A model generated the notes under the pieces. That model saw only the letters and a program-made list of their open reading frames with translations. It searched no databases and was not told the DNA's origin. Positions 1-17,739 of a stretch of DNA of 64,000 nucleotides are shown piece by piece; position 1 is the stretch's first letter; every line of letters starts with the position of its first letter. The DNA lies in assembly GCF_023055435.1 (NCBI RefSeq), contig NW_025963802.1, forward strand, positions 26,784,001 to 26,848,000, in the 5' to 3' direction. Position numbers and translations under genes: made by a program. Source of the DNA: Haliotis rufescens. Taxonomy: Eukaryota.

Positions 1-94
1 CATGACTCTTACCCCAACATCCACGAGTATCTGTACTATCCATCACCCCATCTTCGCCACGCGTCGCCGTACCACTCTTCTTTGTTTCAGCCAT
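1..94 (-). CDS. 5' part of the duplicated BIR protein gene (runs off the window start)
   Basis: Identical to 5152-5245 (MAETKKSGTATRGEDGVMDSTDTRGCWGKSH). Confidence 0.85.
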   Translation of the reverse strand, partial: MAETKKSGTATRGEDGVMDSTDTRGCWGKSH

Positions 95-405
95 TCTTGA
101 TCATTTTATGTCAAATACACTGACCCACTCGAATCCACACTTGTTTTATAGGAGCAGAACCGGATCGAAAATGGCTGCTTCCTGGTTGGTCCAAAACGCA
201 ACGCACGGATTGGTTCGTTCCGGGGCCTGGTTCCCACCTCGGTTTTCTTAAACGACCCGACCCCTGTGTTTCTTTTCCATAGGAAATGGATTTTACCATG
301 GGAGAGAAAGCACAACTCGGCTCGGGTGCTGTCTTCTGATTGGTCGGTGCTGTCTTATGATTGGTCGACAACCCAGGCTTCGGATTGGTCCGATTTCGAT
401 CCTGT
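87..405. promoter_or_regulatory. Promoter cassette copy A (bidirectional BIR/pPolB), duplicate of copy C
   Basis: Multiple CCAAT boxes (GATTGG), TATAAAA on minus strand at ~144-150, identical to 5238-5556. Confidence 0.75.
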
Positions 406-483
406 TTTGGGGAAGGGTTATCCATCCATCAGACGTTCAGTCCCTCTTAGAGTACAGACGTTCATCAGATACGCATCGCTATC

Positions 484-3000
484 ATGACGAGCAACCCAAG
501 TACGCCCTATCGTTTGGAGAGGCAAGACATCACCCGCTCCAGACGATTAAGACCCGCTAACCATACCTATCGTTTGACTTTCAACCCAGACTACTTGGAC
601 ACCGTACCACCGGAACGCGTTCCCATGGAACTGCCAGTTTTATTTGACAGGGTCATCGATGACTTTTATGAACAGATGTCAGGCCAGAAGGGAGATCGTA
701 TTGGTCTAGGTATCGATCATCCCGCTTTGAACACCTCCATACGGATTCCCTTTCGTCGCTTTGAAGATCTCCATGGGCTCGATATTTTGCATGCCGTGGA
801 AAAAGTCCAACAGTCCAACAAAGACCTGAACATCGATGCCACCATGGTGGTGACTTTAGTACACGTCTCAGATCCCGACAGGCTAGGATCGGGCAGTGGC
901 GGTCATCAACTGAAACACGTGATTGGACTCGAAGCCTTTTTAACACGCAAACAGTGCATTGTACGGATCAACAACCAAGATCAATCCTGTTTGGCACGGG
1001 CCCTGGTGGTGGCACAACATTATGCCCAGAAACCCCTCCCTTTGACCCCAGAATGGACCGCCGAGCGAGTGAGACTGACGAGAACGAATCGCGTCGACGT
1101 TCAAGGCATACGGGCACGGGACTTGTTTCGACGCCTTGGCCTGTCTGAAGGCCCCTGTCAGGGCCTGGACGACCTCACACGCGTGGGACGCGCCTTGGTC
1201 CCCCTGAATTATCAACTGAAAGTCTACAGTCAAGAGGTGGACCAGAGACTGTTGTACAAGTGTGATGAGGCTCCACCCCACGCCACGGTGCTGCATCTAT
1301 ACCATCATGATCAGCACTACGATGTCATCACGTCCATGCCCGCTTTTTATGGCTCTAACCATTACTGCGAACGCTGCGACAAACGTTACGATCATCCCGA
1401 AAAACATCCCTGCACCAAGGAATACCGCTGTCACCGCTGCCTCCACTGTACCTATTGCAAGTCCCTGGAAGAGCACGGGATCCCTTGCTTGACATGTCAA
1501 CGTTGGTTCCCCAATCCATCGTGTTACACTCGACATCTCCAGTCACCGTCAGAGGGAAAACCCAGCGCCTGCCAATCGATTCACAGGTGCCCGACCTGTT
1601 TTCATCTGGTCCGCATCTTGGAGACCCCCATGGTTCACCACGAGTGCTTCGACGAAGACCATCCCTGCTTGGTGTGCCGAGAACCCATGACCCCAGACCA
1701 TCGCTGTTACATGACGCCTCTCCGTGAAGAAAACGAGGAGGAGGGGGAGGGGGAGGAGGGGGAGGGGGAAGAGGAAGCGGAGAAGGAGGGGGAAGAGGAA
1801 CAACATCACGTACGAGACAATGTACGATACGCCTTCTATGATTTTGAATGCATGCAAGACACGGGGGAACACATTTCAAATTTGTGCGTGGTGCAACTGG
1901 GATGTGGACGGTGCATCAGTGAAGTCAGCAAGGACTTGTGCGAACACTGTCCATGGAGAGAAGAAGGATATGGTCCCAGCCGTGAGATCGTGTTTCGAGG
2001 CCCCACCACGCGACATGATGTGTGTGTGTGGTTGACCACGTTGGCTGAAAAACCCAGGAAGAAGCCCCACCCAGAGGAAGAAGAGGGCAGCACACGCAAG
2101 GGGACAACAGACCGTCTGGGGAAAAAAAGAAAACGGGATGACACCCCCTCAAGAAAGTACGCTTCCAAACGTCAACGACATGCATCACCCCAGCAGGAGG
2201 CGGAGGAGGGGGAAGAGGGGGATGAGGAAGAGGCCATGGAAGTGGAGAAAACAAAGAAGCCAAAGAACAAGAACACCACTTGCCATACAGTCCCGAAGGA
2301 GGATCGCATTTATGTGATGGCCCACAATGCACGATCGTATGATTTACACTTAATCCTGAAGGGTCTGTCCCCCCTCCTGGTGACACTCCCCACCAAGATC
2401 CGACATGGCCAACACATTTTGCAGATGACCCTGGGACGGTTGTGTTTCGAAGACAGCTTAAATTTCATCCCTTACCCCCTGAAAGCCTTTCCCAAGAGCT
2501 TTGGGCTGAAAGAAATGAAGAAAGGGTACTTTCCGCACTTTTTCAATACGGGAGTCAACCAGACCTACAGAGGTCCCTATCCACCAGCCGTCACGTACGA
2601 TCCCGATGGCATGTCTCCCGCGGAACGCACCGCCTTCCTCCAGTGGCATACTCAATAAGTGCAAGAAGGAGCTTTGTTCGACTTACAAGGAGAACTTTTA
2701 GCTTACTGTCAGAGCGATGTGGACATTTTGAGACGGGGATGCGCCGACTTCCGACAGAACGCCATCCACTCGGTGGGCATGGATCCCTTTGTGGAAGTGA
2801 TGACAGCTGCTGCCTTCACCATGAAATCCTTTCGAAAACACGACCTGAAACCCAAAACCATCGCCATTCTTCCACCTCAAGGCTACCAACCCAAGAGAAA
2901 CTATTCCCAGGCCTGTATGCACTGGCTCCACTATCTGATGGAAACGGACCCCCATCTGCACCTCCAGCACGCCAGGAATGGAGGTGAACAAGAGTTCACG
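484..3000 (+). pseudogene. pPolB copy 1, 3'-truncated at the duplication junction, nonsense TAA at 2656-2658
   Basis: Same protein as copy 2 (ExoI FYDFEC, ExoII AHNARSYD, ExoIII YCQSDV). TAA here is AAA at 7807. Sequence switches to TIR at 3001. Confidence 0.92.
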
Positions 3001-3186
3001 ACAGGGTTGTTGTTGTGGTGTGGTTCTAAAAATAGAAATAGAAAAGGCGGTGGGGGTGAAGGGAGGGAGGGAGGGAAGGGTGGGGGGGAGGAGAGGAGGA
3101 GGAGGAGGCGGGGTGGGTTCACGGTGTGGTGGAGGGTGGGTTGGAGGGTCGTCAAAGCAAAGGAGGAAAAGCTGTCTTTCGGGAGA
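2999..3186 (-). repeat. Inner part of the left TIR
   Basis: Reverse complement of 14107-14293 (CGACAGGGTTGTTGTTGTGGTGTGGTTCTAAAAATAGAAATAG...AGCTGTCTTTCGGGAGA) with a few mismatches and indels in the G-rich tract. Confidence 0.92.
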
Positions 3187-3189
3187 TGT

Positions 3190-3516
3190 TCACATGCATG
3201 TGCATCCCATGGTGCAAAGGCACGGGTGGATTTTCATTTCCCGTCTGACAGGACACCTACTGGTGTGCGTTAACCGCCGCACGTAGGTGTCCTTGAGGAT
3301 GGTCTTACAGTACACACATTCGAAAGTACCATCCCGTGCCCTTGTGCCAAGGGCGTACACAGGTAAGCACCCTTGGCATTTACCGCATTGCCATGGAGGT
3401 AGCGATGGCAATGGCGGTACTTCTTCTTCTTTCTTCTCCAACTCCGAGCGACACCCTTTGCACAGTGGCAAAGGGTGCACCACTGAGGCGAGCTCCAGAT
3501 CCCAGTTTTCAGCCAT
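3190..3516 (-). CDS. Small Cys-rich, putative Zn-binding viral protein (108 aa)
   Basis: CKGC, CGKCQGC and CVYC motifs. ATG lies in the same context (CAAGAATGGCTGAAA) and at a similar distance from the cassette TATA as the BIR gene. Confidence 0.65.
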   Translation of the reverse strand: MAENWDLELASVVHPLPLCKGCRSELEKKEEEVPPLPSLPPWQCGKCQGCLPVYALGTRARDGTFECVYCKTILKDTYVRRLTHTSRCPVRREMKIHPCLCTMGCTCM

Positions 3517-3830
3517 TCTTGATTTTTCGAATAAATTTTACAAGTGACACTGACCCACTCGAATCCACTCTTGTTTTATAGGGGAGGCACTGACACCCTG
3601 CTTCCTGGTTGGTTCGCCAGGCCGCAGCTCCGATTGGTTCGTTCCGGGGCCTCGCCCGCACCTCGGTTTTCCAAAACGACCCGACCCCTGTGTTTCTTTT
3701 CCATAGGAAATGGATTTTAACATGGGAGAGAAAGCACAACCCCGGTTCGGCCAATCAGGGTCCCGCCTGGTCCGAGCGCCGCCTCTGATTGGTCGGCAAC
3801 CCAGGCTTCCGATTGGTCCGATTTCGATCC
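3508..3830 (-). promoter_or_regulatory. Promoter cassette copy B
   Basis: Homologous to copies A, C, D and E: CCAAT boxes, CCATTTCCTATGGAAAAGAAACACAGGG core, CTATAAAACAAG, TCAGT initiator-like motif. Confidence 0.75.
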
Positions 3831-4500
3831 GTTTTTTTCCTTGGGTAGCCTTGGTATTGTTTTAGGTAGACGGTCGTCTGAATGCTAAAGGAAAGGTGGA
3901 CCTTCATAGGTAGACATGAACGTGGGAATGCCTACGCGATGTACGTTGTGTCACTCCCATGCCAATCGGAGTGTCATGTGTGTATGTGTGAGTGTGGATG
4001 TCTTCAAACAGACGTTGACGTTGATGCATAGAATAGCGTGTTGTCAAGCAAAACGTGGTGTCCTGTGTGTGTGTGTGTGTGTGTGACTACAACCATGGGT
4101 GTCGTATGGAGATGAATAGAGAAAGATCGATACACCTGCGTGACGTTTGCACACGTCATGGACTTCGTGTCGCGATGTGAACGTCATGTACTTTGTGTGT
4201 TGCCATGCAAACGTTGTGTCATGTGTGTGTGTGTTTTCAAATTATTATTTTTATTATTATTATTATTATTGAAGGATACCGAGGTGTTGACATCCGTGTA
4301 AGTCGACAGACGTACTGTGACACGTGTTTTCATGCACACGTGATGTTTGACGTGGTGTACTACGTGTCTCTATTGATCTATTGATATATATCTATGTATT
4401 GTATTTTTAGACGTGTGCCTCCAAGAGGTCTAGGGGGGAGGGTGTGGGTTCTTTGTTTTTTTTTGAGGGGTGGGGTTTAGCAAAGCAAAGGAGGAAAGTT

Positions 4501-4541
4501 GTCTTTTGGGTGAGATGGGTGGCCCTGAAAAGGGCCGTTTT
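4501..4541 (-). terminator. Replication-dependent histone-type 3' stem-loop plus HDE-like element
   Basis: Minus strand reads CAAAAC-GGCCCT TTTC AGGGCC-ACCCA-TCTCA-CCCAAAAGACAAC. This matches the metazoan histone stem-loop (6-bp stem, TTTC loop, A-rich 5' flank, ACCCA 3' flank), followed by a purine-rich AAAAGA about 8 nt after the expected cleavage site. Confidence 0.8.
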
Positions 4542-4825
4542 GGGGAAGAAAAACTTTTCTGCTGCTGCTGTCCAAGAAGAACGATCATGTCCAAGCTTCA
4601 TGACAAGACAAGGATCGTCGAAGCGGTACTTGTAACCATCTGGGTATGTCATCGGGGTGCCCACCGTGGCACCACTTGTGGGTCCAACAAAGAAAAGCTT
4701 GTTGGAAACAGGAAGCGGAAACAGACTGAACCAACCACAACAACAACAGCAGTAGACAAACGGGAACTTGAACGGGAACTTGAATGGGAACTTGAACAGG
4801 AACGCAGGACACGGGAAACGTCCTC

Positions 4826-5245
4826 CTAGGCAGCCGGCTGCGCTACGTCATTCGTGTACCTCTGTTTCTGGTGTTTCAACAGGCCGGTGAGCTTGAGGTA
4901 ATCGCAGTCTGGGGACCACTTGTGATGTGCCCCCCAAGGATCGTCGTGGGGTGCCCATTGTCTCAGCCGCAACCCACATTTGAAACAGCACACACCATCG
5001 GCCATCTGAGTGTAGACAAACCCCGCATGGGCCATCTCTTCAGCAGTCTGATACATTTGCGTTGGCCACGCCTCAAACGAAGCGAGCCTTCTTTCAAAGC
5101 GTAGATAATAGTGCGATGGCGTTTGACTGAGCAGTGACACCGCATCCTCGGCATGACTCTTACCCCAACATCCACGAGTATCTGTACTATCCATCACCCC
5201 ATCTTCGCCACGCGTCGCCGTACCACTCTTCTTTGTTTCAGCCAT
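4826..5245 (-). CDS. Single-BIR-domain IAP-like protein 1 (139 aa)
   Basis: RLASFEAWP...MAHAGFVY...DGVCCFKC...LRQWAPHDDPWGAHHKWSPDC fits the BIR consensus with CxxC-H-C ligands; no RING. Confidence 0.92.
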   Translation of the reverse strand: MAETKKSGTATRGEDGVMDSTDTRGCWGKSHAEDAVSLLSQTPSHYYLRFERRLASFEAWPTQMYQTAEEMAHAGFVYTQMADGVCCFKCGLRLRQWAPHDDPWGAHHKWSPDCDYLKLTGLLKHQKQRYTNDVAQPAA

Positions 5246-5556
5246 TCTTGATCATTTTATGTCAAATACACTGACCCACTCGAATCCACACTTGTTTTAT
5301 AGGAGCAGAACCGGATCGAAAATGGCTGCTTCCTGGTTGGTCCAAAACGCAACGCACGGATTGGTTCGTTCCGGGGCCTGGTTCCCACCTCGGTTTTCTT
5401 AAACGACCCGACCCCTGTGTTTCTTTTCCATAGGAAATGGATTTTACCATGGGAGAGAAAGCACAACTCGGCTCGGGTGCTGTCTTCTGATTGGTCGGTG
5501 CTGTCTTATGATTGGTCGACAACCCAGGCTTCGGATTGGTCCGATTTCGATCCTGT
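5238..5556. promoter_or_regulatory. Promoter cassette copy C, between divergent BIR1 and pPolB genes
   Basis: CCAAT boxes, TATAAAA (minus, ~5295-5301), TCAGT initiator-like motif; the only intergenic DNA between two divergent ORFs. Confidence 0.78.
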
Positions 5557-5634
5557 TTTGGGGAAGGGTTATCCATCCATCAGACGTTCAGTCCCTCTTA
5601 GAGTACAGACGTTCATCAGATACGCATCGCTATC

Positions 5635-8600
5635 ATGACGAGCAACCCAAGTACGCCCTATCGTTTGGAGAGGCAAGACATCACCCGCTCCAGACGATTA
5701 AGACCCGCTAACCATACCTATCGTTTGACTTTCAACCCAGACTACTTGGACACCGTACCACCGGAACGCGTTCCCATGGAACTGCCAGTTTTATTTGACA
5801 GGGTCATCGATGACTTTTATGAACAGATGTCAGGCCAGAAGGGAGATCGTATTGGTCTAGGTATCGATCATCCCGCTTTGAACACCTCCATACGGATTCC
5901 CTTTCGTCGCTTTGAAGATCTCCATGGGCTCGATATTTTGCATGCCGTGGAAAAAGTCCAACAGTCCAACAAAGACCTGAACATCGATGCCACCATGGTG
6001 GTGACTTTAGTACACGTCTCAGATCCCGACAGGCTAGGATCGGGCAGTGGCGGTCATCAACTGAAACACGTGATTGGACTCGAAGCCTTTTTAACACGCA
6101 AACAGTGCATTGTACGGATCAACAACCAAGATCAATCCTGTTTGGCACGGGCCCTGGTGGTGGCACAACATTATGCCCAGAAACCCCTCCCTTTGACCCC
6201 AGAATGGACCGCCGAGCGAGTGAGACTGACGAGAACGAATCGCGTCGACGTTCAAGGCATACGGGCACGGGACTTGTTTCGACGCCTTGGCCTGTCTGAA
6301 GGCCCCTGTCAGGGCCTGGACGACCTCGCACGCGTGGGACGCGCCTTGGTCCCCCTGAATTATCAACTGAAAGTCTACAGTCAAGAGGTGGACCAGAGAC
6401 TGTTGTACAAGTGTGATGAGGCTCCACCCCACGCCACGGTGCTGCATCTATACCATCATGATCAGCACTACGATGTCATCACGTCCATGCCCGCTTTTTA
6501 TGGCTCTAACCATTACTGCGAACGCTGCGACAAACGTTACGATCATCCCGAAAAACATCCCTGCACCAAGGAATACCGCTGTCACCGCTGCCTCCACTGT
6601 ACCTATTGCAAGTCCCTGGAAGAGCACGGGATCCCTTGCTTGACATGTCAACGTTGGTTCCCCAATCCATCGTGTTACACTTGACATCTCCAGTCACCGT
6701 CAGAGGGAAAACCCAGCGCCTGCCAATCGATTCACAGGTGCCCGACCTGTTTTCATCTGGTCCGCATCTTGGAGACCCCCATGGTTCACCACGAGTGCTT
6801 CGACGAAGACCATCCCTGCTTGGTGTGCCGAGAACCCATGACCCCAGACCATCGCTGTTACATGACGCCTCTCCGTGAAGAAAACGAGGAGGAGGGGGAA
6901 GGGGAGGAGGGGGAGGGGGAAGAGGAAGCGGAGAAGGAGGGGGAAGAGGAACAACATCACGTACGAGACAATGTACGATACGCCTTCTATGATTTTGAAT
7001 GCATGCAAGACACGGGGGAACACATTCCAAATTTGTGCGTGGTGCAACTGGGATGTGGACGGTGCATCAGTGAAGTCAGCAAGGACTTGTGCGAACACTG
7101 TCCATGGAGAGAAGAAGGATATGGTCCCAGCCGTGAGATCGTGTTTCGAGGCCCCACCACGCGACATGATGTGTGTGTGTGGTTGACCACGTTGGCTGAA
7201 AAACCCAGGAAGAAGCCCCACCCAGAGGAAGAAGAGGGCAGCACACGCAAGGGGACAACAGACCGTCTGGGGAAAAAAAGAAAACGGGATGACACCCCCT
7301 CAAGAAAGTACGCTTCCAAACGTCATCGACATGCATCACCCCAGCAGGAGGCGGAGGAGGGGGAAGAGGGGGATGAGGAAGAGGCCATGGAAGTGGAGAA
7401 AACAAAGAAGCCAAAGAACAAGAACACCACTTGCCATACAGTCCCGAAGGAGGATCGCATTTATGTGATGGCCCACAATGCACGATCGTATGATTTACAC
7501 TTAATCCTGAAGGGTCTGTCCCCCCTCCTGGTGACACTCCCCACCAAGATCCGACATGGCCAACACATTTTGCAGATGACCCTGGGACGGTTGTGTTTCG
7601 AAGACAGCTTAAATTTCATCCCTTACCCCCTGAAAGCCTTTCCCAAGAGCTTTGGGCTGAAAGAAATGAAGAAAGGGTACTTTCCGCACTTTTTCAATAC
7701 GGGAGTCAACCAGACCTACAGAGGTCCCTATCCACCAGCCGTCACGTACGATCCCGATGGCATGTCTCCCGCGGAACGCACCGCCTTCCTCCAGTGGCAT
7801 ACTCAAAAAGTGCAAGAAGGAGCTTTGTTCGACTTACAAGGAGAACTTTTAGCTTACTGTCAGAGTGATGTGGACATTTTGAGACGGGGATGCGCCGACT
7901 TCCGACAGAACGCCATCCACTCGGTGGGCATGGATCCCTTTGTGGAAGTGATGACAGCTGCTGCCTTCACCATGAAATCCTTTCGAAAACACGACCTGAA
8001 ACCCAAAACCATCGCCATTCTTCCACCTCAAGGCTACCAACCCAAGAGAAACTATTCCCAGGCCTGTATGCACTGGCTCCACTATCTGATGGAAACGGAC
8101 CCCCATCTGCACCTCCAGCACGCCAGGAATGGAGGTGAACAAGAGTTCACGTGTGGAGAGGGCCACCATCGGTACAGCGTGGATGGCTACGATCCAGCGA
8201 CAGGCACCATCTACGAGTTCCTGGGCTGTTTCTGGCATGGGTGCCAGACCTGTCACAAGACCCAACGTGGAGAACCACATCCCGTCCTTGGCACGTCGTT
8301 GGGAGCCCGTTACACCGACACCCGCTACCGCTTGAGTCTGCTGAGTCAACACCCTGAGGTGAAACGGATCTTCACCCTGTGGGAGCACGAGTTTACGAAA
8401 ATGCAACGGGAGGACTCCGCTCTGCGTGCTTTCTTGCAGGGACCCCGCTGTATCCACGTCCCCGGGCCGCTCAACCCTCGCGACGCTTTCTATGGAGGAC
8501 GCACCAATGCGACGCGATTATGCTACGAAGCCCAAGATGGTGAAACCATCAAGTACATCGATATTTGTTCCCTTTACCCCTACATTTGTAAGACCGGAGC

Positions 8601-9865
8601 GTTTCCCACGGGACACCCGACCCTTCTCCATCAACCCCCTGTGGACACGTTGTTTGAACTGAAAGGCCTGATCCAATGCCGTGTCCTACCCCCGAAACGC
8701 CTCTACCACCCGCTACTGCCTTACAGATCGGGTGGCAAACTGCTCTGTCCTTTGTGCCGTACGTGTGCCGATGCCCGGTCAGACTCCCCCTGCCAGCACA
8801 CGGACGAAGAGAGGTCATGGGTCGGGACGTACGCCACCGTAGAACTTCAGGAAGCCGTGAAGAAGTATGACTACCGGGTGCTTCAGATCTACGACGTTTG
8901 GCATTTTGACACTTTTGCACAGCATGACCCCGACACCCAGCAAGTGGGACTCTTTGACACTTACATCGATCGGCATTTCAAGGAGAAGCTCGAAGCCAGC
9001 GGATACCCCGAGGGATGTACGGATCACGATGCTTACATCCAGGAAATCTATGACAAAGAAGGCATTGGGTTGGACAAGGATCGCATCGAAAAAAATCCAG
9101 GACGTCGCACGATTGCCAAGATGCAACTGAATTCGCTCTGGGGCAAGTTTGGACAACGGGTAGACTACAGTCAGAACGTCTATATCAGCGATCCTGTACA
9201 GTACTTTGCCTTGTGGAGGGATGACCGCAATACCATCGAGGATGTGACCGTTGTCAACGAACACATGGTGGAAGTGACCTATACCCATCGGAAAGAATAC
9301 CAAACCCCTCATTCTCATTTCAACGTCGCCATCGCCGCTTGGGTAGCCCAAGCACGTCTCAAGCTGTACGAGACCCTTGCCCTGGTGGGCCGCAGGGTCT
9401 TGTATTTTGACACGGACACCGTCATTTACATTCATCGACCCCACGATGAAAATCCAGAGCTGGGCCATTCGTTGGGTGAGTTTACGGATGAACTGGACGG
9501 AAACACCATCAAGACGTTTGTGTCGGGAGGTCCCAAAAACTATGGCTACGAGTTAATGAACCCCAGACCCGATGGAACGCGCACGACCTGCAAAGTGCGA
9601 GGGTTCACTTTGAATTACCGAAACCAACACCATCTCAACTTTGACACCATGAAAGGACTGATACTGGGACAACGGCCTGGGAAAGACGAGGAGAAAATCA
9701 GTTTGCATTACCCTCATCAGATCATTCGAAAAGGACCTCGTCACGAAAACGCAATTGTGACCCGACCCTCCCGAAAAGACTATCGTACCGTGTACGACAA
9801 GCGACGAAACCACAGGGCTGCCTGTAGATACGCTCCCCTTTGGGTACAGAGACGACTTTCACTAA
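5635..9865 (+). pseudogene. Protein-primed family B DNA polymerase (Polinton-type pPolB) with N-terminal terminal-protein-like/vOTU-like region, Zn fingers and VSR-like nuclease insert; nonsense at 6682 and +1 frameshift near 9807
   Basis: ExoI/II/III, motif A YIDICSLYP, motif B KMQLNSLWGKFGQ, motif C YFDTDT, KNYGY. DQSCLARAL...HYDVI is vOTU-like. VDGYD...YEFLGCFWHGC is VSR-like. CGA>TGA at 6682 (CGA intact at 1531). The conserved C-terminus DTLPFGY continues in another frame to TAA 9863-9865. Confidence 0.95.
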
Positions 9866-9920
9866 AAACAATTTCATAACAGCGGATCGAAACCGAATCG
9901 ACATGGACCCCTACAGAAAA

Positions 9921-10152
9921 AAACGGATCGAAATCTGACCAATCCGAAGCCTGGGTTGTCGACCAATCAGAGGCCGCACTCGGACCAGGGTGGGCTCTGA
10001 TTGGTCGAACCGAGGTTGTGCTTTCTCTCTCACGCTACAAGACTAACCCTATGGAAAAGAAACACAAGGGTCGGTCCATTTTGGAAAACCAAGGTGAAAG
10101 TCCGACACCGGAACGGACCAATCAGAAAGCAGGACCTCCGTGGCTTTTAATA
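9921..10152 (+). promoter_or_regulatory. Promoter cassette copy D (more diverged)
   Basis: GGATCGAAATCTGACCAATCCGAAGCCTGGGTTGTCGACCAATCAG...CCTATGGAAAAGAAACACAAGGGTCGG, homologous to the other copies. Confidence 0.72.
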
Positions 10153-12265: not shown

Positions 12266-12796
12266 ATGGAGCAAAGACGTTCTATGAATGCCATGTCATC
12301 CTCCCGAGATGTCGTCACCGATTCCGAGTGGGTGTGTGAAAAGGCGAGAGAACCAGAAGCGAGAAAACGTCCACTCTTGATGGACGACACACTCTTGATG
12401 GACGACAGGTGTCGACTCGGTGACGTTCTGGAGAGACCTTTTCCTTCTTACACCTTGTGTCATCCTTCTCATCCCCACTATGATTCATTTCAAGAACGTC
12501 TGAGGTCTTTTCAAACGTGGCCTAAACAGATGACCCAGACCCCTTATGACATGGCCATGGCTGGCTATTTCTATCCAGGACGAGGGGACTGTGTGACCTG
12601 TTATTGCTGCGGTGTGGCACTCCGCCAATTGGAAGCCACAGACCAACCCTGGAAAGAACATCTGAAGCACGACAAAGTCCCCTGCGAATACTTGTGCGTG
12701 TTTTGTCCTGATGGAGAAGTGAACGAAAAATACAGACGTTTGGTGTCCCAAGAAGCACGGAAGAGAAGAGTCGAGTGTCTTGTACACCCCAAGTGA
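12266..12796 (+). CDS. Single-BIR-domain IAP-like protein 2 (176 aa)
   Basis: ERLRSFQTWP...MAMAGYFY...DCVTCYCC...DQPWKEHLKH...C; upstream CATAAAAG and TCAGT; ATTAAA at 12949. Confidence 0.9.
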   Translation: MEQRRSMNAMSSSRDVVTDSEWVCEKAREPEARKRPLLMDDTLLMDDRCRLGDVLERPFPSYTLCHPSHPHYDSFQERLRSFQTWPKQMTQTPYDMAMAGYFYPGRGDCVTCYCCGVALRQLEATDQPWKEHLKHDKVPCEYLCVFCPDGEVNEKYRRLVSQEARKRRVECLVHPK

Positions 12797-13013
12797 CAAC
12801 GTTTTTTTGTTTTTTTTCAAAGTGGTCAGACGTTCCTACCCTCGTGGTCACCCCTCGTGGTCACCCCTCGTGTTCACAAAAATCACAGGGATGACCCCCC
12901 TCATCCTGTGACTTTTGTTTTGTTGTGTTGGTTCATGTGATCAGGGGGATTAAATTTGTTTTAAAAACTCATAGTCGTGTTATGTTGTCTGTAGGATGAA
13001 GAAAAAACAAAAC

Positions 13014-13310
13014 AGGATCGAAATGCACACCCCGATAAAAACCGGATCGAAATCGGACCAATCGGAAGCCTGGGTAGTCGACCAATCAGAGACCGCGCTC
13101 GGACCAGGCGGGGCTCTGATTGGCCGAACCGGGGTTGTGCTTTCTCTCCCATGGTAAAATCCATTTCCTATGGAAAAGAAACACAGGGGTCGGTCCGTTT
13201 TGGAAAACCGAGGTGCAGGCCGGGCCCCGGAACGAACCAATCGGGGGAGCTGCCTGGGGAACCAATCAGGAAGCAGGGTGTCAGTGCCTCTCCTATAAAA
13301 ACAAAACAAG
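13014..13310 (+). promoter_or_regulatory. Promoter cassette copy E
   Basis: Near-inverse copy of B; CCAAT boxes and CTCCTATAAAAAC just upstream of ATG 13340. Confidence 0.78.
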
Positions 13311-13339: not shown

Positions 13340-13969
13340 ATGAAACCCATCATGTCAGCTCGATACAGTTGTATGAAGTGCCAGACCGACAGTCACAGTT
13401 ACCTGTACTGCCCTGAAGTGACATGCCTCCAGTGTCACGATCAAGGTCACCGTCACTATGTCTGTCCGAAGCTGAGCAGTCTAGAGATGCAGGAGAAGCA
13501 GAACCTGGCCCCCTGTTACAACTGTGAAGCCCTGGGTCATTTCGCTGCAGATTGCCCAGAACCCCGTCGAAAGAAGACTCCCCATCGCCTGGACCGCTGT
13601 TACAACTGTCGAGCCCTGGGCCATTTCGCTGCAGATTGCCCAGAACCCAGTCGAAAGAAAACGTTAGCAACACCGTCCACGTCGACACCCGTGGCATCCG
13701 TGGCAACCGTGACCCCCGTGACCCCCGTGACCCCCGTGGCACCCGTGACACATGTCCTTCATCTCATCGAAGACATGCATGTCGATGTCCTCGACCTAAA
13801 AGAATGCCTCACACAACTCCGTGTAGGCATCACACCTCGTGTAGAGAAAAGAAAACGGAACAGAAGCCCCTCACGAAAACACGTTTCAAAGCGTCGACGA
13901 CACCTTCCGTCCGAGGATGAGATGGAAGTAGAGGATGGAGAAGTTAGATCATCTGAACAAAGTGACTAA
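13340..13969 (+). CDS. CCHC zinc-knuckle protein (4 knuckles) with bipartite NLS-like tail
   Basis: CMKCQTDSHSYLYC, CLQCHDQGHRHYVC, CYNCEALGHFAADC, CYNCRALGHFAADC. The start is placed after the TATA box, not at 13151, which lies inside the promoter cassette. Confidence 0.85.
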   Translation: MKPIMSARYSCMKCQTDSHSYLYCPEVTCLQCHDQGHRHYVCPKLSSLEMQEKQNLAPCYNCEALGHFAADCPEPRRKKTPHRLDRCYNCRALGHFAADCPEPSRKKTLATPSTSTPVASVATVTPVTPVTPVAPVTHVLHLIEDMHVDVLDLKECLTQLRVGITPRVEKRKRNRSPSRKHVSKRRRHLPSEDEMEVEDGEVRSSEQSD

Positions 13970-14106
13970 CGCATGGGCCATGCTGCCCCACTGTTTTTAC
14001 CCGTTTCCCATCGTTTGCAGTTTTTCCAGTGTTCCAGTGTTCCAGTGTTCCTGCCGTTTCCTGTCGTTTCCAGTTTCCAGTTTGTTTTCCAACGGCCCTT
14101 TTCATC

Positions 14107-14665
14107 TCTCCCGAAAGACAGCTTTTCCTCCTTTGCTTTGACGACGCTCCAATCCACCCTCCACCACACCGTGAACCCACCCCTCCTCCTCCTCCTCCCT
14201 CCCCTCCCTCCCTCCCCCCTCCCTCCCTCCCTTCACCCCCACCGCCTTTTCTATTTCTATTTTTAGAACCACACCACAACAACAACCCTGTCGATCTTGT
14301 TCACCTTGTACGTGCGCTTCTCCGGGTTTTTCCCCATTCATCTCCTCCCCGGAAACGGAGGCGACGCCCTCTTGGAGGCGCACGCCACCGGACACGGAGG
14401 CGACGCCATCTTGAAGGCGCACGCCACCGGACACGGAGGCGACGCCATCTTGAAGGCGCGCGCCACCGGACACGGATGCGACGCCATCTTGGATGCGCGC
14501 GCCACCGGAAACGGATGGGACGCCATCTTGGATGCGCACGCAAGTCCCATCATGCCCCGCGCGCATGCGCAGGTCACGTGACCGGATGTGACGTCACAGA
14601 GGTCACGTGATCCTCTCGACCAATCAGAAGCCAGGAGCGGTTCTCGGGTAATGTACACAACTACT
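14107..14665 (+). repeat. Right TIR (~560 bp)
   Basis: Inverted match to 2999-3186; ends ACTACT; contains E-boxes (CACGTG), a CRE (TGACGTCA) and a CCAAT box near the tip. Confidence 0.88.
14351..14541 (+). repeat. Five 39-bp tandem repeats inside the TIR, four with a YY1-type site
   Basis: Unit GGACACGGAGGCGACGCCATCTTGAAGGCGCACGCCACC; CGCCATCTTG matches the YY1 consensus. Confidence 0.85.
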
Positions 14666-15709
14666 AACACTAAACCAGTAAATGCCCCCATTGCAACTTA
14701 AAAGAAACGCCTGAACTAATGGGCATGGCCTCAGCCCTCCATAATCAAGAATCCAAAAACCACAAAAAAAACCTAATACTTACCGACTACCTAAGTGGAC
14801 TGCAAGCCCTCCAAAACAAAAATACCAAAAACCGGCCTAAATTAATAAATCAAATACTTAAAAGCTCCAACGACCTAACTAACGCAGGCAAACAAATAAC
14901 CTTCTTGTGGATACCCGCCCACGTAGGAATATACGGTAATGAAAACGCCGATAAGGCAGCTAAACTATCCCTCAAAATCCCAGAAATAAGCTTAAACTTA
15001 CCCATCTCAAAATCAGAAATTAAAAGCGTTAACAAGCAAAAAATCACAAAAAATGGCATAATCTATATCTAAACTCAAATAGCCAAATCAAAAAAGTGCT
15101 CAGCAAACCACTAACCAGACCAAAAATTCTCCATCCATCAAAACAAATCGACAGAGTAATCACTAAACTCCAAACAGGACACACCAACCTAAATAACCAC
15201 CTAAAAAATTTAAAAAACACACTACAGGTAACTGCCCACACTGTAAACAACTAGAAACCCCAGAACACGCACTCATCCACTGCACACACTACCTTACACA
15301 TAGAACCGCATTACAAAACCACCCTCAATCTAAACAAGGCTCTCACTCTAGAAGCAATACTAAACCCACAAAATAAACTAGAAAACTTCAAGGCCTTAGG
15401 CGTATTCTTAATCAAAACGGAACTAATAAAACGCATCTAAAAACACAATAACCTACCAAATCAAAATTACATAAACACACAAACATCCACCATACCCAGC
15501 TCCCTTAGTTCTCCTCCCCTACCCCATCGGCATCTATTCCAAATCTCAAAATTCCCAAATTCTATATAAGCATCCCCTTAACCCCCCTCTTGGGTTGCAC
15601 AGACCACTTTCGCCCCTTTCGGAAACACATTAAATGGCCTGGCCGGGCCCGTGTGCGAAATACGCATCAGTCGGAAAGCGCACGTTAAATCTCCAAAGTA
15701 AGTAAGTAA
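14666..15709 (+). mobile_element. 3' part of an RNase H-bearing non-LTR retrotransposon (I/Nimb-like), the insertion target of the Polinton-like element
   Basis: ILTDYLSGLQAL...FLWIPAHVGIYGNENADKAAK is RNase H; downstream frameshifted TGH...CPHC...ETPEH...C motif; (GTAA)n tail at ~15698-15709. Confidence 0.85.
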
Positions 15710-16762: not shown

Positions 16763-17570
16763 AACAATTTGATGTTCATACGTTTTTCACGAGACCGTGT
16801 TCTTGAAATGACGTAAACACTGACGGACTACTTCAACATTCCTGGGGAAACCCCTGGGAATTCCCTACCACGAAAACATACATAAACGTTCTTTCTGATC
16901 ATTTAGAACCTTAACTCTTGGTCTCAGCGTGTCAGTATACGTTGAGAAATGTCAGAGAGCGTGACTGCATGATTGTTCACGAATATCCTCGCTGCGGCCT
17001 ATCCTAATGAACAAACGAAGAAATGCACATCTAAACTATCGTAGTATCGACTCGATCCGTGATTAGGTTGACATTGACCGTCTCCAGCAATCTATGAATT
17101 TACCTTAGTGTCTGTTTGGCGCATCTTTATTCACCTTTCAATGATCGGCCAGTTGATCAATGATGACTAACACATCTAACCGCCACAGGTTCATTAACAA
17201 CTTCGGAAATCTCTCCCGTCACGCGTTTATCGTGTCGGCCATTTTGACGTCTTGTACTTGATGCATATGTATTATGACGCGCTGTCATTGTGACTGACTT
17301 ACTGAGGTAGTTCTTTACAGACCTTTCTCATCTAATGAGGATATGATTTGAATACATGTGCTGCGTAGGATGTTTCTGAAGAGCAAGTTGTGCATCCATA
17401 CGCCCATGTCACCTCTCTTTTTGAGGAACTATTTTACACCGCGATGTAGCTGGTTGTTGTATGGCTGTCAGTGTAAACATGAAGTCACGCGTACTAAACA
17501 AAAAAATTAAATTGTGTTTAGATCTTGGCCTACATCCTTTGGGGTAAGACATTGTGATAAAAACATTATA

Positions 17571-17728
17571 AAATTTACTTTCACTTTGTGTGAGTTCATT
17601 GGAGTATGAACCTTCATAGAGTGAGGGCCAAACATTGTAGGAACGTTGTCGCAAGCTCCGCCGTTAATTGGCCCTCATTCTATGAAGCTTCATACTCCAA
17701 TGAACTCACACAAAGTGAAGGTCAATTC
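17571..17728. repeat. Inverted repeat (~60-bp arms), MITE/hairpin-like
   Basis: TTCACTTTGTGTGAGTTCATTGGAGTATGAA...GAGGGCCAA versus TTGGCCCTC...TTCATACTCCAATGAACTCACACAAAGTGAA. Confidence 0.8.
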
Positions 17729-17739
17729 TTAAATGTACA

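Follow-up and report, generated by a model that had tools for sequence, protein, structure and literature searches.

A conserved histone-type 3'-end cassette behind small intronless genes of a Polinton-type element family

To our knowledge, the stem-loop, SLBP and U7 pathway is regarded as exclusive to histone mRNAs. Initial annotation of a 64,000-nucleotide stretch of DNA (the window) placed a complete signal of this type behind a BIR-domain gene of a Polinton-like element, which raises the question of whether the signal is genuine, which genes of the element carry it, and what a mobile virus-like element might do with a histone mRNA 3' end.

The processing signal and its host counterparts

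The quoted motif is present on the minus strand (Table 1), the only correction being that its leading C is position 4542, one base past the end given for it, and the hairpin starts 290 nt past the BIR1 stop codon, as claimed. With Rfam, the sequence scores 36.8 bits against RF00032 (Histone3; gathering score 34), the sole Rfam match above cut-off within the window, and the hairpin has the 6-bp stem, 4-nt loop and conserved flanks of that family. The motif pattern matches once in the window and in 0 of 100 shuffles, even with two mismatches allowed, and in the centroid fold of positions 4490-4560 the hairpin is the sole helix (z -2.06; 6 of 200 shuffles fold as well). Neither AATAAA nor ATTAAA occurs in the 525 nt after BIR1 (4300-4825), and both are likewise absent behind the zinc-knuckle gene.

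The statement that no histone ORF lies nearby was borne out, as the upstream ORF encodes a BIR protein and no histone remnant was found by tblastn; host H1, H2A, H2B, H3 and H4 gave no match at E 0.01 against four element stretches. In blastn comparisons between elements and host histone loci, likeness is confined to the cassette of about 45 nt and two matches of 17-23 nt. A replication-dependent histone gene or pseudogene was thus rejected as the source of the motif, since likeness to host histone loci ends at the cassette and histone coding sequence of all five host classes is absent upstream.

Set against the metazoan replication-dependent histone 3' end (RF00032, HDE, SLBP and U7 snRNP), the hairpin, flanks, loop, HDE core and spacing are host-like. 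The 16-nt element hairpin is that of host H1; compared with the hairpin of host core histones it has a different pair 3. The purine core lies 13 nt past the stem as against 12 nt in host core histones; the exact element hairpin and the 13-nt spacing occur together in two of the four host H1 loci fetched. In the comparison with host histone HDEs that had been proposed at the outset, the element HDE matches 7 nt of the core common to the five host classes and differs at the eighth. Judged by sequence, the signal is compatible with the host and in full identical to none of the five histone classes, and it may stem either from capture of an H1 gene end or from convergence. The C-G pair in place of U-A at pair 3 was considered as a compensatory change against host histones and rejected, because host H1 has C-G too. 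Host core-histone units are about 4.1 kb long; apart from these four-gene repeats, a tandem array of about 100 H1 genes with 3-kb spacing was observed at G000:C445:49.27-49.84 Mb. For host U7 snRNA, the Rfam model gave 0 matches, and no control matched either; two patterns matched at chance level (23 versus 26, and 238 versus 204, with 100 of the 238 places listed), and by inspection none of the 23 candidates was convincing.

The element is like replication-dependent histone genes in its intronless ORFs and in its CCAAT/TATA promoters, which resemble those of host H3. Unlike histone mRNAs, however, those of the element code for BIR proteins, a zinc knuckle and orphan Cys-rich proteins, and unlike host histone genes the element genes belong to a mobile element; they have longer 3' UTRs and promoter modules from which the motif common to the host H1, H2A/H2B and H4 promoters is absent. 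A histone-like promoter in the narrower sense was judged a weak candidate: in 30 comparisons, the only likeness to stand out was a 12-nt word in common with the H1 promoter (p 0.003-0.007, uncorrected), which is present in three paralogous modules and absent from the BIR1 module. Two back-to-back arrangements like that of an H2A/H2B pair were also observed, one formed by the BIR1 and polymerase promoters (window 5236-5634), and the other by the 86-aa ORF and ATPase gene of the second element type, which share one module (L085:2905-3174).

A Polinton-type family with two element types

The left end of the element is at G000:C24:26781448, a short way left of the window, and its right end is at window position 14666; its length is about 12 kb once a 5151-bp internal tandem duplication is discounted. 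Its terminal inverted repeats (575 bp, 96% identical) are flanked by matching 6-mers of a 6-bp target-site duplication, and such repeats and duplications are found in further copies. Together with a protein-primed PolB (PF03175, 118.7 bits), these features confirm the Polinton-type identity first suggested for it, Polintons being understood as defined in the available part of 10.1101/2023.08.22.554363. The gene order consists of a left-facing Cys-rich ORF and BIR1, followed by right-facing polymerase, two orphan ORFs, BIR2 and the zinc knuckle; an upstream duplicate of BIR1, with its own stem-loop, lies just left of the window. The closest homologues of BIR1 that were found are all named from Haliotis (14 of 14), and the host is therefore most likely an abalone. 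The anti-apoptotic role of BIR1 is putative, as suggested by its single BIR domain, with RING absent in the Pfam scan.

Table 1. Coordinates of features of the window's element and of type-B elements (window positions unless a contig or locus is given)
Feature	Position	Strand	Remarks
Remainder of internal tandem duplication (5151 bp)	1..5151	+	1-3000 is 99.8% identical to 5152-8151
Cys-rich ORF, 108 aa	3190..3516	-	No Pfam match
HDE-like purine-rich element	4501..4508	-	Core 4507-4502; 13 nt past stem
Histone-type stem-loop with 5-nt flanks	4516..4541	-	Hairpin 4536-4521, ACCCA 4520-4516; predicted 3' end after 4516
BIR1, intronless single-BIR ORF, 139 aa	4826..5245	-	Pfam BIR, 82.7 bits
Promoter module of BIR1	5236..5559	-	Four CCAAT boxes, TATA 56 nt before ATG; back-to-back with polymerase gene
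Paralogous promoter modules	3507-3835, 9890-10123, 13037-13300		
Feature right of the BIR1/polymerase promoter region	5635..9879	+	
BIR2, second single-BIR ORF	12266..12796	+	No stem-loop; ATTAAA 152 nt past stop
Zinc-knuckle (zf-CCHC) ORF	13340..13969	+	Behind promoter module; stem-loop follows in sister copies
Third cassette, inner edge of right terminal repeat	14091..14119	+	3' arm of hairpin lost, HDE kept
Right terminal inverted repeat	14103..14666	+	About 575 bp, 96% to left repeat at G000:C24:26781448; 6-bp target-site duplication
Type-B elements	G000:C1:46151509-46161860 (L085, L105); L150-L163		

The canonical one-piece Polinton gene set (integrase, ATPase, capsid and protease plus polymerase) is not present in the window's element, which belongs to a type (type A, about 12 kb) that has the polymerase and is without integrase, ATPase, capsid and protease. 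In a second type (type B), with a length of about 10.4 kb, genes for an ATPase, an integrase and capsid-like and protease-like proteins are present and the polymerase is absent. Type B has terminal repeats in common with type A; its target-site duplications are perfect in five copies and near-perfect in a sixth. One of 40 integrase places, and no capsid place out of 40, is at most 25 kb from any of the 100 polymerase sites listed (17 more sites exist, and a further 22 integrase and 20 capsid candidates are unscored), whereas integrase and capsid places occur together in 27 of 40 cases. Direct Pfam matches of type-B proteins are weak (Capsid_N, E 0.015; Peptidase_C5, E 0.052; S273R, E 0.71), and a 38%-identical full-length homologue passes Pfam as DJR-like. 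The protein family matches hint weakly at a double-jelly-roll-like capsid and an adenain-like protease. An ORF of the RING/B-box (TRIM-like) type was observed between tandem type-B copies (L080:6027-7310).

In common with Polintons/Mavericks, the family has pPolB, long terminal inverted repeats and 6-bp target-site duplications, with an A32-like ATPase, an rve-chromo integrase and capsid-like and protease-like genes in type B; it differs in the histone-type ends on a subset of genes and in dividing its core genes between two types, one of about 12 kb and the other of about 10.4 kb. We lean towards the reading that the family is in a bipartite state, with two separately integrated types that have terminal repeats in common, the alternative being an unseen one-piece helper. 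Decayed copies that join type-A genes to type-B genes such as ATPase and integrase pieces (L093, L101, L116, L165 and L166-L167) suggest a one-piece ancestor or recombinants. Bipartite pPolB viruses with common termini are known in the Bidnaviridae, which have ssDNA and parvovirus-type capsids and are not known to carry an integrase. The polymerase on one segment and the terminal repeats common to segments are thus points of likeness, whereas a putative double-jelly-roll-like capsid, an integrase and genomic integration set the present family apart.

Genes that end in the cassette and its conservation

The initial annotation treated the cassette as a feature of the IAP gene only, and BIR1 indeed carries it, but its distribution is wider, as four different genes of the family end in it. 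The cassette stands in sense orientation behind BIR1, the Cys-rich ORF, the zinc knuckle and the 86-aa ORF of type B, all of which are small and intronless. Each is preceded by a version of a single promoter module, which contains several CCAAT boxes along with a TATA box. The distance from stop codon to hairpin is 10-21 nt for the Cys-rich ORF, 45-47 nt for the 86-aa ORF, 113-204 nt for the zinc knuckle (for an ORF chosen by script) and 125-290 nt for BIR1; in host core histones it is about 30 nt. In intact elements the cassette is always sense to a gene; it faces outward at the inner border of a terminal repeat in three of its four positions, with one site internal. In the window copy two cassettes are damaged: the hairpin has been lost behind the internal duplicate of the Cys-rich ORF, although both the left-end copy (L032) and sister copies have a stem-loop there, and at the right terminal repeat the hairpin is without its 3' arm.

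The mapped loci show no cassette after the genes for integrase, ATPase, capsid or protease, after an intact polymerase, or after BIR2 or the 197-aa ORF; the last two end with ATTAAA or AATAAA instead, and in the rearranged copies L093, L095 and L082 the cassette is found beside polymerase fragments. Of seven type-B elements chosen by integrase, six have the hairpin at the end that bears the small promoter-driven ORF and none has it at the protease end, which indicates that the cassette follows the gene class and not the terminal repeat. A segment with another hairpin and ATTAAA is common to window 12870-13020, after BIR2 in type A, and L105:3660-3825, after the protease in type B; this is possibly a second, poly(A)-type end signal.

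Comparison of sister copies bore out the expectation that the signal is retained, the stem-loop behind BIR1 being kept in 30 of 30 copies at loci picked by BLAST with a 951-nt query. For 28 aligned copies (leaving out L002, a tandem duplicate, and L005, which breaks off after the HDE), diversity across the 40-nt stretch of stem-loop and HDE is 0.007, without gaps, compared with 0.052 for BIR1 coding sequence, 0.06-0.08 with many gaps for the 3' UTR and 0.04-0.12 for downstream DNA. No other 40-nt window reaches so low a value (0 of 941), and with L005 included none of 452 non-coding 26-nt windows is as low as the stem-loop, a comparison between mutually related copies and thus not an independent-sample test, to which conversion among repeats could contribute. 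Position and spacer of the HDE have no variable column in 14, and the SLBP-type flanks and loop are conserved to the same degree as the HDE. The loop is unchanged in all 119 distinct sites and the purine core is 13 nt past the stem in 110 of them, while many HDEs have one or two positions at which they depart from the host core; counts from L063-L122 lean upward because these loci were fetched around hairpin matches. Genome-wide, the stem-loop matches 1114 times, host histone genes included, and the element-type word 294 times. The cassettes after BIR1 and in the terminal repeat have about 60 bp in common (92%), which indicates that the BIR1 cassette arose by duplication.

RNA evidence, proposed mechanism and rival explanations

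Among sequencing runs recorded as RNA, none containing the stretch was found. Four of 24 listed sequencing runs were compared with the upstream duplicate, L002: two small-RNA runs, of which X20 gave 0 reads and thus no test, and two contig sets from probable RNA runs of related organisms, which may contain DNA and in which contigs cannot show ends. Contigs of both probable RNA runs cover BIR1. One contig (X1 record 1, L002 292-638) runs across the Cys-rich gene and has its end at L002:292, which is the final base of ACCCA and the predicted cut; this is one of 16 pieces listed, with 85 more, and branching alone gives such an end in 1-7% of simulations. No end at the BIR1 cut was found among the 16 pieces listed. 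Sequence past the terminal-repeat cut is likewise present in both contig runs (bin 211-321, with a loose end at 240), one contig having a damaged hairpin. The small-RNA run with reads, X21, contributed 128 reads, with no pile-up at either hairpin and five start peaks (L002:1139, 1477, 2736, 2980 and 3376), all antisense to element genes, which fits piRNA-type silencing.

Our reading is that the Polinton family has probably co-opted SLBP/U7 3'-end formation for one class of its genes. For the proposal that the histone 3'-end pathway had been captured, the canonical signal, its sense placement, its conservation and the host match all hold, but at the predicted cut there is one contig end, and sequence beyond it is also present. 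The known metazoan pathway consists, in the available text of PMC12360213 and PMC4604434, of SLBP binding, U7-guided cleavage, a non-polyadenylated mRNA and coupled termination, and from it we infer the steps of the mechanism. Host RNA polymerase II would transcribe the cassette genes, SLBP would bind the hairpin while U7 snRNP pairs with the HDE, and CPSF73 would cut about 5 nt past the stem. The products would be non-polyadenylated mRNAs dependent on SLBP for export and translation, and cleavage-coupled termination would end outward transcription before the terminal repeats are crossed.

It is conceivable, if on balance doubtful, that these genes form an early class confined to SLBP- and U7-rich cells (S phase, oocytes and cleavage embryos), where a protein-primed replicon would find nucleotides and reach the germ line. 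Replication-coupled decay needs a stop codon near the hairpin. The restriction to S phase put forward in the initial annotation is therefore weaker than proposed, because the H1, H2A/H2B and H4 promoter motif of the host is missing and the BIR1 UTR is long.

A different emphasis would make the cassette a terminator or insulator first, cut by the histone machinery and selected mainly to stop outward transcription, with SLBP timing incidental; read-through of the terminal repeats or a neighbouring gene would give double-stranded RNA and feed piRNA silencing. The outward-pointing positions at the repeat edges agree with this, as do the antisense small RNAs against the family in one run and the missing host histone promoter motif. 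However, a poly(A) signal, which other family genes carry, would also terminate, the SLBP-type flanks and loop are conserved like the HDE, and the type-B protease end is without hairpin in seven of seven, so that we regard this account as unlikely. The hairpin might instead not be a normal 3' end, SLBP binding it inside a longer polyadenylated or read-through RNA as a translation aid, for maternal storage or as a decoy for SLBP/U7. Such RNAs would explain the sequence beyond the cut in both contig runs and would accommodate the departures of HDEs from the host core, and bimorphic and polyadenylated histone mRNAs are known (H2AFX, in the accessible part of PMC4604434); yet the conserved position and spacer of the HDE would be needless for binding alone, and the lack of a poly(A) hexamer after BIR1 also makes this quite improbable.

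Co-option likewise has to be weighed against the view that the cassette is an inert captured histone 3' end, or a mark at the DNA level (for replication, packaging or the boundary of the terminal repeat), and that it reached its present places through duplication and gene conversion among repeats. The origin of the BIR1 cassette by duplication, the identity of the hairpin with that of host H1, and the ability of conversion among repeats to lower diversity are all in keeping with it. Against this, diversity rises directly outside the 40 nt, the cassette is always sense to a gene in intact elements and has one internal site, and no histone sequence extends beyond it. In addition, one end is without the hairpin in type-B elements whose target-site duplications match, so that transposition does not need it in both repeats; we consider inertness or a DNA-level role very unlikely, and co-option remains our preferred reading.

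In the literature covered by title and abstract, which leaves out most subscription journals, Repbase reports and supplements, we found no description of histone stem-loops in Polintons, viruses or transposons, nor of bipartite or segmented Polintons. In the available parts of the more closely related texts, a 2026 preprint on evolution of the pathway screens giant viruses only for processing proteins and leaves transposons and Polintons unmentioned, a histone-gene review does not cover histone stem-loops on Polintons or viral mRNAs, and a viral-histone review mentions stem-loops zero times. Two encounters with the histone RNA machinery offer partial parallels: HCMV, a virus, needs SLBP, but a viral-mRNA stem-loop is undescribed in the passages on this (PMC9169081), and U7 represses the mobile element HERV1/LTR12, which, in the part of the text available, is host repression and not a 3'-end cassette (PMC11417402). 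IMG/VR gave 0 matches to the stem-loop pattern and no capsid relative. Two metagenome relatives of the polymerase, one of them with 39% identity on an 8.7-kb contig, are both without a Histone3 match, but as both contigs are partial this does not show its absence.

The cassette is thus real, conserved, family-wide and without precedent found, and on the sequence features described a function is highly plausible. A full signal on four unrelated genes of a mobile virus-like family would be a natural exception to a histone-only pathway and, if true, a natural case of virus-encoded non-histone mRNAs as substrates of U7 snRNP and SLBP. The element would then be timed to replicating or germ-line cells, a novel means by which a virus could tie the expression of its genes to host replication or oogenesis, and the question arises whether U7 processing can operate at dispersed loci, away from the histone locus body. 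The cassette genes would be under-represented in poly(A)-selected RNA-seq. The proposal is directly testable in the probable host, an aquaculture animal. The two-type architecture, if confirmed, would be a second new feature, and one that screens requiring all core genes in one element would miss. The combined picture is tentative, and we hold it close to evenly balanced: a bipartite integrating abalone polintovirus with two 3'-end classes, in which the mRNAs of small regulatory genes would be histone-like, bound by SLBP and without poly(A), and those of structural and replication genes would end in another way.

Several minor observations concern derivatives of the family and the DNA around the window's element. 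Short or rearranged derivatives with terminal repeats, promoter pieces and stem-loops, and with no match to the reference genes, were seen at L072-L073, L088, L096-L098 and L122. Directly right of the insertion site, window 14719-15072 holds an RNase H fragment of a LINE-like element, and a MITE-like 69-bp inverted repeat (90%) with a 36-nt spacer is found at 17563-17736.
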